NCBI GenBank assembly: GCA_964580865.1
Contig: CAZONM010000001.1
Span: 2,825-66,824 of the forward strand
Reading direction: 5' to 3'
DNA: 64,000 nt
Source: an uncultured Myxococcales bacterium
GTDB taxonomy: Bacteria > Myxococcota > UBA727 > VGSZ01
The notes beneath the pieces are model-generated. The model made no database searches and was not told the origin of the DNA. It saw nothing but the letters and a program-made list of their open reading frames with translations. Made by a program: the position numbers and the translations under genes. Of the stretch, positions 7,770 through 13,984 are shown piece by piece. Positions within the stretch are counted from its first letter, which is position 1. Each line of letters begins with the position of its first letter.

Positions 7770-9092
7770 TCAGGCCGGCGTGGACGGGCCCACGGGTGTC
7801 GTCGCCGCCTCGCTCGCCGGCGGAGCAGCGGTCTCGCTCCTTGGCGGAGCAGCGGCAGCTTCGCTCGCAGGCGCCGCCAGGTACCCGCGAAACAGCCGAC
7901 CGAGCGCCCGCTCGACGAAGGGACGCTCGCGAAACAGCGTCAACAGCGCCGCGAGCGTGATGGTGAACAGCACGCAGCCAAAGACCGTCGCCTCGATGGT
8001 GGCGCCCTCCACCACGCCGGCCTGGGACGGGACCGCGGCGAGCACGGCGGCGGCCAAGCCCTTTGGCACCATCGCCGCCGCGATCTTGGCGTCCGCGCTC
8101 GTGGTCGTCGACGCGCGCAAGCTGAGCCGCACCACGAGCGGCCGCAGCAGGAACATCGCCACGGTGGCGAGGCCGCCAAAGACGAAAGGCTGGTAGCCGT
8201 CGAGCTTCAGGGCTGCGCCGAGGTAGACGAAGAAGAGCACCTTGAGGAAGAACGCCGACTCCGACAGGAAGGTGCGCTCCCCTTCCGTGAGCGCGAGCTC
8301 ACGCGCGTAGGGCTTGTTGGCGGCGAAGGTGTCGACGTTGCCAAGGACGATGCCGAAGGCGAGCACGGCGATGGCGCCGAAGGTCCCCACCGCCTCTGCG
8401 GCTGCGAACACCAGGAAGACCGCGGCGCCCATGGCGAGCAGGCTGGCGCGCCGGGCGCGCAGCGCGCGCAGCCCGAACGCCCAGCCGCCCGCCGCCGCGC
8501 CGCCGATGACCACGGCGCCCACGAATGACCAGGCCAGGTCGAAGGCGATGATCTTCGGCTGCAGCTCGCCCGCGACCAGCACGCCGGTCAATGCCAGCGT
8601 GACGACGATGCACAGCACATCGGAGACGGCGCTCTCGAGGGTGAGCACGGTGCGGGTCTTTGGTTGCAGCGGTAACAGGGCCACCATGGGGATGACCACG
8701 GCCGAGGAGGTGCCGCCGAGGATCGCGCCGAGGCAGAGGGCCGCGAGCGGCCGCATGCCAATGAGCGCCCAGCCGAGCACCCCCATCACCGCCATCGTCG
8801 CCAGGAAGTTGGCGAAGGTCAGGATGGTGGAGGGCGCGAGCGCCTCGCGTAGCTCCTGCACGCGCAGCCGGCTCGCGCCCTCGAACAGGATGAGGACGAG
8901 CGCGGCCGTGGTGAAGGTGCGGTCAATGCCCTTCAGATCGGCGACGTCGAACACGCCGCTCATCGAGGCGACCAGCCCGAGCAGCAAGAGCACGAGGACA
9001 TCGGGGACGCCGGTGCGGCGAAACAGCTCCTCGAGCGCCATGCCGACGACGACGAGGCCGGCGAGGACGGCCAGGATGACGGTCGCGCTCAT
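7770..9092 (-). CDS. cation/H+ antiporter (CPA1/NhaP-like)
   Basis: 440-aa polytopic protein, Na+/H+ exchanger-like (ILFEGASRL, LESAVSDVLCIV); convergent with the preceding antiporter. Confidence 0.7.
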   Translation of the reverse strand: MSATVILAVLAGLVVVGMALEELFRRTGVPDVLVLLLLGLVASMSGVFDVADLKGIDRTFTTAALVLILFEGASRLRVQELREALAPSTILTFANFLATMAVMGVLGWALIGMRPLAALCLGAILGGTSSAVVIPMVALLPLQPKTRTVLTLESAVSDVLCIVVTLALTGVLVAGELQPKIIAFDLAWSFVGAVVIGGAAAGGWAFGLRALRARRASLLAMGAAVFLVFAAAEAVGTFGAIAVLAFGIVLGNVDTFAANKPYARELALTEGERTFLSESAFFLKVLFFVYLGAALKLDGYQPFVFGGLATVAMFLLRPLVVRLSLRASTTTSADAKIAAAMVPKGLAAAVLAAVPSQAGVVEGATIEATVFGCVLFTITLAALLTLFRERPFVERALGRLFRGYLAAPASEAAAAPPRSETAAPPASEAATTPVGPSTPA

Positions 9093-9174
9093 GACGTGAC
9101 GCCTCCCTTCACGCGAGGACGATGACGCCCTGGACAGGGGCGCGGCGGCCGGGACCTGCTCGGGACGTACCGAC

Positions 9175-9927
9175 TCACGCCGCTCCCCTCCGCAGCGCGA
9201 TCAGCCGCTCGAGCAATCGATCGACGTCCTCCTGCGCGCCCACGAAGTAGGGCGCCGCGGACCTGCGCGCGCGGCCGACCCGAGCGGCGACCAAAGGATG
9301 ATCGCCCGACAGCGCGAACACGTCCTCGTCCGTCACGTCGTCGCCGAGATACAGTGCGGCGGCTGGTTGCAGTGCGTCCCACAGATGGAGCAACGCGTCG
9401 CCCTTGTGTTGCGCGGCTGCGGGCAGCACGTTGACGACGTGGTGACCGCTCATGGTGCGCAGGTCGCGCGGCAGCACCTCGAGGGCCGCGCGGATCCGGG
9501 CGAGGGCCGCGCGCGGATCGTGCGCGTTGCGGTAGTGGATCGACAGCGAGTAGCGCTTGTCCTCGATCTCGACCCCGCGCACGCCGTGGAGCGCGCGCAG
9601 CAGCCGCTCGTGGGTCCGCGCCAACGCGCGCGGCGCGGCGACAATCGCGCCCGGACCCTCCTGCCCGTGGTTGCCGATGACGTGCTCGACGTGGGTGCCG
9701 CGCAGACGGGCCTGCACGTCGCTGCGCGCGCGCCCGGAGATGACCGCGGTCGGGTACAACCCGCTGAGCTGCGCCAGCAACGAGCGCGTGATGGCGGAGA
9801 GCGCAGCCGCATGTCGGTCCGGCACAATGGGCGCGAGCGTGCCGTCGAAGTCGAAGGCGAGCAGGCAGGCGCTGCCGGCGAGCGCCTCCAGGATGCCGGC
9901 GCCGCGGCGCCCCAACAGGTCGATCAT
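9175..9927 (-). CDS. otsB: trehalose-6-phosphate phosphatase OtsB (HAD-IIB)
   Basis: HAD motif FDFDGTLAP, GRARSDV, KGDAL, LGDDVTDEDVF; the start at Met14 (9927) overlaps the otsA stop (ATGA). Confidence 0.8.
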   Translation of the reverse strand: MIDLLGRRGAGILEALAGSACLLAFDFDGTLAPIVPDRHAAALSAITRSLLAQLSGLYPTAVISGRARSDVQARLRGTHVEHVIGNHGQEGPGAIVAAPRALARTHERLLRALHGVRGVEIEDKRYSLSIHYRNAHDPRAALARIRAALEVLPRDLRTMSGHHVVNVLPAAAQHKGDALLHLWDALQPAAALYLGDDVTDEDVFALSGDHPLVAARVGRARRSAAPYFVGAQEDVDRLLERLIALRRGAA

Positions 9928-12155
9928 GCGCGCCCGAGCGCGAGCGCGCCGCGCCATGAGCTCCACCGATCGGCCATGCGCTCCTTGCGGCGCAGCTCGG
10001 CGGCGTCGATGATCATGCGGCCGGCCCAGCGATAGACGTTGAACTCGGCGACCATGCGGCGCATCGAGTGCATCCGTTCGCGCTGCTCACTGGCCGGCAT
10101 CTCCAGCGCGTGCGCCAGCGCCTCGGCGCTCTCGCCGATGTCGTAGGGGTTCACCACCAGCGCCTCGGTGAGGTCGCGCGCCGCGCCGGTGAACTGGCTC
10201 AGCACCAGCACGCCGAGCCCGTCTTCTCGCGCGGCGACGAATTCCTTCGCCACCAGGTTCATGCCGTCGTGCAGGCTGCTGACGAAGCACAGGTCGGCTG
10301 CGCGGTAGAAGCGAAACACGGTCTGCGGCTCGTGGTGCGCTTGCAGCAGGCGGATCGGCTGGTAGCCGTCACCGCCGAGCCGCGCGTTGATCGCCTGCAC
10401 CTGGGCCTGCACGCGCTCGTTCAGCTCGCGATAGCGCGGGATCTTGACGCGGCTCGGCGCCGCGAGCTGCACGAAGACGAAGCGGCCGCGCAGCTCCGGG
10501 TGGCGCAGCAACAGCTCCTCGACGGCCGCGAAGCGCTCCTCGACGCCCTTGGTGTAGTCGAGCCGATCGACACCGACGCCGATCAGGGTGTCCGGCGGCA
10601 GGCCCAGCTCCTCGCGCACGCCGCGCCGACACTGCGCCGCGTCCGGGATCTCCCCCAGCCAGTGCACCGGCCACTCGATCGAGATCGGGTAGGGGCGCAC
10701 CAGCGTGCGGCGCTCCCCTTGCACGATGGCGGTGGCCTCGCGATCGATGCGGCTCTCGAGGAAGGCGTCGGCCGAGTCGATGAAGTTCTTGCAGTGCTGC
10801 GCGGTGTGAAAGCCGAGGATGCTCGAGCCGAGCAGGCCGTTCAGCAGCTCTTCGCGCCAGGGGCAGATGCCGATGCGCTCGGCGTTCGGCCAGGGGATGT
10901 GCCAGAAGGTCAGGATGGTCGCGCGCGGCAGGCGCTTTCGGATCATGCGGGGCGCGAGCGCAAAGTGATAGTCCTGCACGAGCACGATGGGCTCGTCGGA
11001 GTCGATCTCGTCACAGACCGCGTCGGCGAAGCGCTGGTTGACCCGCTGGTAGTGGGCCCAGTCCTCGGCCCGGAACTGCGGCCGCTCGTGGGCGATGTGG
11101 CAGAGCGGCCACAGGCCCTCGTTGGAGAAGCCGTAGTAGTAGCCGTTCTCCTCCTCGTCGCTGAGCCAGACGCGGCGCACCAGATACGACTCCTCGCCGG
11201 GCGGCACGCGCACGCGATCGTGCGCGTCGACGGTCTGCCGGTCGGCGCTGCCGCTGCCGTGCGCGACCCATACGCCCGAGCACGCGCGCATCACCGGCTC
11301 GAGCGCGGTGACCAGGCCGCTCGCGGGGTGCTGCACGCGCACGTCCTCGCCGACCTTCTCGTGGATGTAGGGCTCGCGGTTGGCGAGGATGACGACGCGC
11401 TCTCCCTGCAGGTAGCGCTCGAGCGTGTCGTGCAGGCGGGTGGGGCTCCAGGTGCCGGCGCGCGCCTCATGGGCCGCCTCGTCCGCCAGGCGCTCGACGA
11501 GGGCGCGCACATCGCGCACCAGCGGTTGGAACTCGCGGCGGCCCTCGCCGCTCAACGCGCGCAGCATCTCGCGGCGCCACCTGCGCCAGGCGAAGCGGGC
11601 GCCGAGCAGCGTGACGATCGAGGTCAAGAGCGCCAGCACGAAGTACGAGCCGATCAGGAACGCGCGCGTCGTCGCCTCGCGGCGCTGCACGAAGCTCAGG
11701 TCGTGCACCAGCACTACGTCGCCGAGCCGCGCCTCGCCCTCCGTCACGCCGAGCACGCTCAACAGGACCGGCCCGGAGGGCAGCTCGGAGCGCTGGGTCC
11801 AGTGCTGGAGGTCGCCGTCGTCGCGCACGCGCGCCTGCTGGATGGCGCGGCACGAGAACTCCAGGGGGTAGAGCTCCGTGCTGGTCAGCGCCTTGCCGCC
11901 GGGATGGCAAGCGGCGGCGGCCATGATGCGGTCGTCGCGCGTGATGTTGCGCAGCACGGCGCCGAGGCGCTCGACGTCGGCCCCCCAGTGCTGCACCAGG
12001 CTGTCGCGCGCCGACTCGACCGCGAGCCGCGCGCGCAGATCGAGGTCGCGCTCGAACCAGCGCCGGGTGGTGTCGCGCATCACCACGTCGCCGACGACCG
12101 CGAGCCCCGCGAGCATCGCCAGCAGCCCGAGCAGCAGGATCAGCGTCCGCGGCAC
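9924..12155 (-). CDS. otsA: trehalose-6-phosphate synthase OtsA (GT20) fused to an N-terminal ~260-aa two-TM membrane/sensor-like extension
   Basis: The C-terminal ~480 aa carry the GT20 signature ([53 protein letters not shown]). The N-terminus has TM1 [18 protein letters not shown], a ~160-aa loop, then TM2 [23 protein letters not shown] start. Confidence 0.85.
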
Positions 12156-12164
12156 GGTTACGGG

Positions 12165-12187
12165 ATAACATCAAATGCTTTGATACC
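12165..12187. promoter_or_regulatory. 15-bp perfect palindrome ATCAAATGCTTTGAT in the otsA / GH15 divergent promoter region (coordinates approximate +/-2)
   Basis: Read directly in the AT-richer 59-bp intergenic region between otsA (start 12155) and the GH15 gene (start 12215). Confidence 0.45.
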
Positions 12188-12214
12188 CAAGCAAGCCGTG
12201 CTAGCCCGAAGCTC

Positions 12215-13984
12215 ATGCAGCTCGCGGAGCTCGGCCTCATCGGCAATTGCCAGTCGGCCGCGTTGGTCGCGCGCGACGGCGCCATCGTCTGGTCGTGCCT
12301 GCCGCGCTTCGACTCGCCGCCGGTGTTCGCGTCGCTGCTCGACGGGGCGGCGGGCGGGAGCTTCCGGATCGGCGCGCCCGACGGCCGGCCGGGGACGCAG
12401 CGCTACCTGCCGAACACCAACGTGCTCGAGACGCGCTTCGAAGATGCCAGCGGTGCCTTCCGTGTGCTCGACTTCATGCCGCGCTTCGTCCAGCACGGCC
12501 GGACCTTCCGCCCTACCAAGATCGTGCGCATCGTCGAGCCGCTCTTCGGCACGCCACGCATCAACGTCACCTGTGACCCGGTGCTCGGCTGGACGCGCGC
12601 CGCGCCGAGCCGCGAGGCGGGCTCGCACCACCTCGCGTGGCACGGCTTCTCCGCACACCTGCGCCTCACCACCGACGCGGCGCTGTCCTACCTCGACGCG
12701 GGCCCGTTCGCGCTCACCGAGCGCAAGCACTTCGTGCTCTCGTGGGACGCGCCGGTGGAGGAGCCGCTCGAGCCACTCTGTCAGCGCTTCCTCGAGCAGA
12801 CGCAGCGCTACTGGGTCCAATGGGTCAAGCACTGCGACGTGCCGCCCGCCTACCAAGAGCAGGTGATCCGCTCCGCCCTCGCGCTCAAGCTGCACTGCTT
12901 CGAGGACACCGGCGCCATCGTCGCCGCCGTCACCACGTCGCTACCGGAGGCACCCGGTGCCGCACGCAACTGGGACTACCGCTACTGCTGGCTGCGCGAC
13001 GCCTTCTACACGCTGGGCGCGTTCCGCCTGCTCGGCCACTTCGAGGAGCGCGAGCAGTTCCTCGACTTCCTGCTCAACGTGGCCTCGTCCACCCCCGACC
13101 TCGACCTCGCCCCGCTCTACCGCGTCGACGGCAAGAGCGACCTGACGGAGCAGACGCTCGAAGCGTGGCCGGGCTACCAAGGCAACCGGCCGGTGCGCGT
13201 CGGCAACGGCGCGGCGCTGCACCGGCAGCACGACGTGTTCGGCGAGATGGTGCTCGCGTTCACGCCGCTCTTCCTCGACGCGCGCTTTCGCGACCACGTC
13301 ACGCCGCCGGTGCTCGACCTGGTGGCGCGCCTGACCGACAAGGCCATCGCCGTCGCCGGTCAACCGGACGCCGGCATCTGGGAGGTGCGCAACACCTGGC
13401 GGCCGCAGACCTTCAGCACGCTGATGTGCTGGGCCGCGGCCGATCGCATGAGCCGCATCGCGGCGGCCCACCGCCCTGGTGCCGCCGCGGGCTACGCCGC
13501 CGCCGCGGCGAGCCTGCGCACGCAGCTGCTCACCCAGGCCGTGCACCCGACGCGCGGCTGCCTGGTGGCCGACCACGGCGGCACCGAGGTGGACGCCGCC
13601 TTGCTGCAGGCCATCACCCTCAACTTCCTCGCACCTGCCGATCCCATCGCGGGCCGCACCATCGACGCCGTGCGCGCCGACCTCGAGCACCACGGCTGGC
13701 TCAAGCGCTACCGCGTCGACGACGGCCTCGGCACGCCCAGCGTGGCGTTCACGCTGTGCACTTTCTGGCTGGTGGAGGCGCTCGCGCGCGTCGGGCGGCT
13801 CGACGAGGCGCGGGCGATCATGGCGCGCGTGCCGGAGATCCACTCGCCGCTCGGCCTGCTCTCGGAAGACCTCGACCCGCAAAGCGGAGTCATGTGGGGC
13901 AACTTCCCGCAGGCCTACTCGCACGTCGGGCTGATCCACGCCGCGTTCGCCGCCTCGCCGCCGTGGTCGGAGCTGGGCGCCTGA
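12215..13984 (+). CDS. glycoside hydrolase family 15 protein (glucoamylase/trehalase-like)
   Basis: 589 aa; the GH15 (alpha/alpha)6 core WDYRYCWLRDAFYT and ELGLIGNCQSAAL N-terminal motif resemble GH15-type trehalases, and the gene is divergent from otsAB. Confidence 0.8.
   Translation: MQLAELGLIGNCQSAALVARDGAIVWSCLPRFDSPPVFASLLDGAAGGSFRIGAPDGRPGTQRYLPNTNVLETRFEDASGAFRVLDFMPRFVQHGRTFRPTKIVRIVEPLFGTPRINVTCDPVLGWTRAAPSREAGSHHLAWHGFSAHLRLTTDAALSYLDAGPFALTERKHFVLSWDAPVEEPLEPLCQRFLEQTQRYWVQWVKHCDVPPAYQEQVIRSALALKLHCFEDTGAIVAAVTTSLPEAPGAARNWDYRYCWLRDAFYTLGAFRLLGHFEEREQFLDFLLNVASSTPDLDLAPLYRVDGKSDLTEQTLEAWPGYQGNRPVRVGNGAALHRQHDVFGEMVLAFTPLFLDARFRDHVTPPVLDLVARLTDKAIAVAGQPDAGIWEVRNTWRPQTFSTLMCWAAADRMSRIAAAHRPGAAAGYAAAAASLRTQLLTQAVHPTRGCLVADHGGTEVDAALLQAITLNFLAPADPIAGRTIDAVRADLEHHGWLKRYRVDDGLGTPSVAFTLCTFWLVEALARVGRLDEARAIMARVPEIHSPLGLLSEDLDPQSGVMWGNFPQAYSHVGLIHAAFAASPPWSELGA

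Follow-up and report, generated by a model that had tools for sequence, protein, structure and literature searches.

Why should a bacterial trehalose-6-phosphate synthase (OtsA) be preceded, in the same polypeptide, by what resembles the input half of a membrane sensor? The question is raised by a gene, here called extended otsA, in a 64,000-nucleotide stretch of DNA (the window) from an uncultured Myxococcales bacterium. Bacteria exposed to osmotic or desiccation stress rapidly switch on compatible-solute synthesis in ways that are understood only in part; the known controls of OtsA are transcriptional, through RpoS, together with a general stimulation by ions. For the Myxococcota and Acidobacteriota, in which desiccation tolerance and sporulation matter, the list of known regulatory mechanisms is short. 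A trehalose synthase wired to a periplasmic sensor-type domain would, if true, provide a direct and tractable link between the cell envelope and solute synthesis.

The OtsA enzymes that have been solved or characterized are soluble and match only aa 253-720 of extended OtsA; none has the 252-aa module that precedes this region, which is predicted to comprise a transmembrane helix (TM1), a PDC-like domain, a second transmembrane helix (TM2) and a linker. In the literature we found no paper on a membrane-spanning or sensor-fused bacterial OtsA and none describing the N-terminal module; what comes closest is a statement on Geobacter GSU2337, of which it is said only that it 'contains a domain' resembling the M. 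tuberculosis enzyme (PMC2700814). We lean towards the view that extended OtsA is a transmembrane receptor-enzyme that would set trehalose-6-phosphate synthesis post-translationally, the signalling itself being the part that we infer.

The extended otsA gene and its locus

Extended otsA and its immediate neighbours are arranged as follows.

9175..9927, minus strand: otsB, trehalose-6-phosphate phosphatase, 250 aa (Pfam Trehalose_PPase); ATG at 9927, longest ORF from GTG 9966
9924..12155, minus strand: extended otsA, 743 aa plus stop, GTG start at 12155 (from the ORF list; the exact protein is NCBI P0165)
12156..12214: divergent intergenic region from otsA to the GH15 gene, 59 bp
12215..13984, plus strand: GH15/TREH_N trehalase-like gene, 589 aa (Glyco_hydro_15, E 1.6e-44; TREH_N, E 7.8e-17)

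The start codon of otsB (ATG, 9927-9925) and the stop codon of otsA (TGA, 9926-9924) share the ATGA overlap that the sequence-only reading had pointed out, and the gene calls of the nearest relative contain an identical 4-nt overlap; otsB is predicted to be translationally coupled to extended otsA. The OtsB product scores above the cut-off of TIGR00685 (101.3 bits against 68.05), and its gene lies directly downstream of extended otsA in 57 of 66 related loci. The GH15 gene, for which the best NCBIfam model is the trehalase TreH1 at a score below the cut-off, is found divergently upstream in 41/70. The genomic context of extended otsA is trehalose metabolism. In a simple scan of positions 9000-12500, the 59-bp intergenic region included, neither a sigma-70 consensus nor a terminator was found; tRNA and Rfam scans of the window were empty and a tandem-repeat scan gave no relevant match. 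Ion-transporter genes lie near extended otsA in the window and in its closest relative. An osmotic context had been considered for these neighbours, but the Na+/H+ and Na+/Ca2+ exchangers of the window reappear in no more than 1-4 of 80 loci, and the argument was dropped for this reason.

The N-terminal extension is not a chance upstream ORF, because GC3 is 0.93-1.0 in each 30-codon block from codon 1 onward and because comparison with the nearest relative (L002) gives a dN/dS of 0.21/0.65 for the N-terminal part, a ratio of ~0.3; for the GT20 part the values are 0.11/0.53. Residues 1-252 are coding and under purifying selection, and the extension claimed to precede the catalytic domain is by these two measures real, with a length of 252 residues. 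Across related loci the median ORF length is 743 aa.

The catalytic domain

10005..11399, minus strand: GT20 catalytic domain, aa 253-717 (Pfam Glyco_transf_20, PF00982, E 9e-115)

The match to PF00982 reaches 384.5 bits against a cut-off of 32.5 and covers profile positions 2-470 of 473. The domain shares 36% identity with M. thermoresistibile OtsA at a TM-score of 0.91 (5jio), and TM-scores against solved OtsA structures are ~0.9. In the alignment to 5jij, the GT20 motifs are all present, namely the Arg of the N-terminal 'NR.P', the Gly-loop, 'Y..FSN..LWP..H', 'DYH', 'H.P.P', 'R.DY.KG', 'PSR' and 'DGMNLVAKE'; the substrate and catalytic motifs are invariant in 119 homologues, and we take the roles of these residues to be those known from OtsA structures. 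The domain is complete and appears to be active. The best NCBIfam models are of OtsA types, with all equivalog scores under the curated cut-offs (413.5 against 564.85 for TIGR02400, the OtsA model, and 463.9 against 634 for PRK14501; GgpS matches at 285 bits), and the protein is therefore treated as a divergent subfamily whose product specificity we infer from context. It is predicted to be an ordinary glucose-6-phosphate-type OtsA, that is, a trehalose-6-phosphate synthase. With this type of domain, and with OtsB immediately downstream, the suggestion that synthesis might be directed to a membrane acceptor found no support. The GT20 domain is the sole cytoplasmic domain found with Pfam and NCBIfam; HisKA/DHp and HATPase_c domains are absent from the protein's matches.

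Distribution of the fusion

As the sequence-only reading had proposed, the phylogenetic spread of extended OtsA and the possible occurrence of its N-terminal module with other outputs were surveyed. The module is present in at least 163 species-representative genomes, mainly of Myxococcota and Acidobacteriota, and it is in frame with GT20 in all 80 fetched loci. An exhaustive HMMER profile search gave 283 clusters with E <= 1e-30; the 164 proteins retrieved through it are without exception fragments or have a length of 719-754 aa. No clear case of the module with a non-GT20 output was found among the 80 loci and the best 150 of 1807 HMMER matches, the profile having spanned ~110 GT20 positions. 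Eight proteins with odd tails after the module were considered as alternative outputs, and all were rejected. Seven are frameshifted GT20; in the other, P0106, the tail resembles by eye the C-terminus of PanB (ketopantoate hydroxymethyltransferase) and is most simply explained by a chimeric assembly. When the N-terminal part alone was searched against a word index of 5.8 billion proteins, a single sequence gave 18 matches and a 38-sequence profile gave 10, all of them fragments or frameshifted calls; the pre-filter evidently lost the full-length proteins, although these were readily recovered by another search, and the result is uninformative on other outputs. Among the inspected proteins the fusion is exclusive to GT20 and, as far as sequence comparison indicates, ancient. 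Among the Myxococcota and Acidobacteriota of soil and groundwater, carriers are abundant. In Uliginosibacterium, RefSeq gives a protein of 701 aa against 737 or 752 aa in other calls, and some annotation pipelines appear to truncate extended OtsA, as in this case.

Two alternative readings of the gene itself were weighed. In one, extended OtsA is an annotation artefact, the true start being internal near aa 250 and the upstream part an untranslated high-GC open frame. Long spurious ORFs do arise in high-GC genomes, the 59-bp intergenic region has no obvious Shine-Dalgarno sequence or sigma-70 promoter, and the RefSeq call in Uliginosibacterium is shortened. Nevertheless, the GC3 periodicity that begins at codon 1, a dN/dS below 1, protein conservation of 21-46% identity across phyla with invariant residues, a confident fold prediction for the N-terminal region and the in-frame fusion in every fetched locus all speak against it. 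The finding that had been named as one that would overturn the extension, a start inside the frame with nothing conserved ahead of it, is excluded because the module is conserved in 80/80 loci; we regard the artefact as effectively refuted and give it hardly any weight. In the other reading the protein is not a trehalose-6-phosphate synthase and makes another product, for example glucosylglycerol phosphate, or uses a membrane-associated acceptor, to which the sub-cut-off equivalog scores and the GgpS match would lend themselves. Against this stand the best sequence and structure matches, which are all OtsA/Tps1, the conserved glucose-6-phosphate and nucleotide-sugar motifs, the coupled downstream trehalose-6-phosphate phosphatase with its score above cut-off, and the adjacent trehalase-like GH15 gene; such a product is very improbable.

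Membrane topology and predicted structure of the N-terminal module

12084..12146, minus strand: TM1, aa 4-24, running from inside to outside (Kyte-Doolittle peak 2.56; family-wide hydrophobic segment at 7-22)
11664..12083, minus strand: periplasmic PDC/sCache-like sensor-type domain, aa 25-164 (predicted)
11907..11909, minus strand: codon TGC of Cys83, at the end of beta1, read from the sequence; in 37/38 diverse members
11850..11852, minus strand: codon TGC of Cys102, at the start of helix 102-111, read from the sequence; in 36/38 diverse members
11595..11663, minus strand: TM2, aa 165-187, running from outside to inside (Kyte-Doolittle peak 2.26; family-wide hydrophobic segment at 168-185)
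11400..11594, minus strand: cytoplasmic helical linker, aa 188-252 (from the predicted structure)

Across a set of 38 diverse homologues both hydrophobic segments are retained, the family means being 7-22 for the first and 168-185 for the second. The mean net charge in this set is -0.6 after TM1 and +2.7 after TM2, a distribution that fits an N-in/C-in topology with a periplasmic loop; the loop is placed in the periplasm because of this charge bias and because it contains exactly two Cys residues. In TM1, four residues on a single face of the helix (F7, L11, L15 and L18) hardly vary, and in the predicted model aa 2-48 form one continuous helix that includes TM1. Owing to these two features, a cleavable signal peptide, which was considered for TM1, is unlikely. 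The two-TM module described by the sequence-only reading is thus recovered, with TM1 nearly where it had been put (~5-25), and both the proposed tether to the inner membrane and the likeness to a sensor-kinase input domain are supported. Its boundaries further along required correction: hydropathy places TM2 at aa 165-187 rather than ~185-205, the loop measures ~140 aa (aa 25-164) and not ~160, and the linker, said to be short, is 65 aa long (188-252) and helical.

For aa 25-164, the predicted fold begins with a long helix and continues into a PAS-like alpha/beta core, whose antiparallel sheet has five strands. Pfam gave no match on aa 1-252, so that the module is without a Pfam model, and a search of 19 N-termini at E <= 10 gave no Cache, PAS or HAMP match beyond noise; the noise-level matches were to SMP_2 in 5/19 (best E 0.018) and to dCache_3 in 1/19 (E 0.17). 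The domain is filed here as a 'PDC-like fold' and not under an existing Cache family because it has no Pfam Cache or PAS match.

The Cys pair that had looked conserved in the loop corresponds to C83 and C102. Both are invariant among 119 close homologues and occur together in 36/38 diverse ones, in which the mean number of loop Cys is 2.03; the domain is probably stabilized by a predicted C83-C102 disulfide. The other invariant or near-invariant periplasmic residues are W33, D37 and R41 in the stalk helix, D74, and D152 and R159 just above TM2. The segment expected to form a pocket lid (aa ~84-118) is variable save P97 and C102, and W119 is also conserved. Judged by secondary-structure positions alone, the periplasmic residues with the highest conservation appear to be membrane-proximal, a placement that would also suit a purely structural role.

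In the linker model, a helix continues from TM2 to aa 201 and is followed by helices at 207-232 and 238-249, the last abutting the first GT20 strand; segment 225-231 is modelled at low confidence. Conserved linker residues are W193, G203, P211, L212, R214-R217, W236, R240, L241, L245 and L249, of which W193, P211, W236 and L241 are invariant or nearly so. The modelled connector at aa 202-206, with the conserved G203, F209 and P211 in and around it, is far shorter than a canonical HAMP connector (~14 residues). Foldseek aligns the linker with the TM2-HAMP part of the WalK model, whereas Pfam HAMP gives no match. The conservation of the module goes further than a mere anchor would require.

Comparison with known systems

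Extended OtsA shares the GT-B fold and substrate-binding motifs with the soluble OtsA/Tps1 enzymes (5jij and 5jio of M. thermoresistibile; 1gz5 and 1uqu of E. coli), and the pairing of otsA with otsB is likewise common to both. With the extracytoplasmic PDC and single-Cache sensors found in histidine kinases and chemoreceptors, namely WalK (4ywz), KinD (4jgo), DctB (2zbb), CitA (2j80), PhoR (3cwf) and CpxA (8uk7), it has in common the predicted fold between two TM helices, together with the extended stalk helix at the N-terminus that runs on from TM1. There are nevertheless clear differences. The identity is 6-16%, no Pfam Cache or PAS match is obtained and the Cys pair is specific to the family. 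The output also differs, being a metabolic glycosyltransferase in extended OtsA and a kinase, cyclase or MCP signalling domain in the sensors. Compared with a two-component sensor histidine kinase, extended OtsA has a layout like that of the input half but lacks the kinase domains.

The logic is shared with receptor-enzymes among the structural matches, in which a periplasmic sensor-type domain and a cytoplasmic catalytic domain are joined in one polypeptide: diguanylate cyclases and phosphodiesterases (7k5n, 8wct and the LapD-type 4u64) and the PP2C phosphatase RsbU of Chlamydia (6mab). Their outputs produce or remove signalling molecules or phosphoryl groups, whereas extended OtsA would directly yield the stress response's own end product, the precursor of a compatible solute. 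In eukaryotic trehalose-6-phosphate synthases an appended N-terminal region modulates GT20, as in the auto-inhibitory N-terminus of plant class I TPS1 and in the fungal Tps1 complex; these extensions are soluble, unrelated in sequence to the module of extended OtsA and not membrane-spanning. The SMP_2 proteins (PF10144; E. coli Smp/YtjB-type) have a two-TM layout with a periplasmic loop like that of the module, but the SMP_2 matches are far under the Pfam threshold and give no evidence of homology, and these proteins have no GT20 domain.

Possible mechanism and alternative roles of the module

What the analysis shows for extended OtsA is its layout: a short cytoplasmic N-terminus, TM1, the periplasmic PDC/sCache-like domain, TM2, a helical linker of ~65 aa and GT20. 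In a receptor-enzyme so built, the periplasmic domain would detect an extracytoplasmic cue, for which an osmotic or desiccation-related change in the envelope, a small ligand, the redox state sensed through the Cys pair and a partner protein are candidates. If PDC sensor kinases are a guide, the signal would be relayed by TM2 and the conserved helices of the linker, probably in a dimeric protein, and would move the two lobes of the GT-B catalytic domain apart or together, or else alter the oligomeric state; we know of no GT20 enzyme for which regulation of GT-B catalysis by helix movement is established. Synthesis of trehalose-6-phosphate and trehalose could thereby be switched without a kinase, a response regulator or new transcription, and the divergent GH15 trehalase-like enzyme may form the opposing degradative arm. 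That a periplasmic PDC-type sensor directly gates a glycosyltransferase, turning an outside signal into a compatible solute within seconds and without phosphorelay, second messenger or transcription, is a proposal to which we assign slightly less than an even chance.

The module might instead be a passive anchor or scaffold without sensing, which would position OtsA, and OtsB along with it, at the inner membrane and keep it dimeric or oligomeric; in this way a membrane exporter or a trehalose pool in the periplasm or spore coat might be supplied, or the enzyme brought close to transporters. No conserved ligand pocket was identified, the conserved residues lie near the membrane and around a structural disulfide by their secondary-structure positions, and some solved PDC domains, for example that of WalK, have no known ligand. 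The ion-transporter genes near the locus in the window and its closest relative would also suit this role, but across 80 loci no gene for a transporter or exporter is a conserved neighbour, and the substrates, like the product of OtsB, are found in the cytoplasm. Moreover, a single TM helix would suffice for anchoring, yet purifying selection has preserved, in different phyla, a folded domain of 140 aa, a pair of TM helices and a linker of 65 aa with the invariant residues W193, P211 and W236. We consider a passive anchor unlikely, although it deserves to be taken seriously. More doubtful still is the idea that an accessory protein of the periplasm or membrane docks on the periplasmic domain, as in CpxA-CpxP or WalK-YycH/YycI, with the real sensor encoded elsewhere. 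WalK and CpxA are among the best structural matches and their extracytoplasmic domains act via partner proteins, and the variable 'lid' and the conserved residues on the surface would fit a protein interface; however, no conserved third gene accompanies otsA-otsB and the GH15 gene in 80 loci.

A family definition for the 252-aa module would improve the annotation of thousands of database entries. If extended OtsA is indeed a receptor-enzyme, metabolic glycosyltransferases would join the known outputs of PDC/Cache sensors as a previously undescribed class, and trehalose synthesis would have a new form of control that is widespread in soil Myxococcota and Acidobacteriota.

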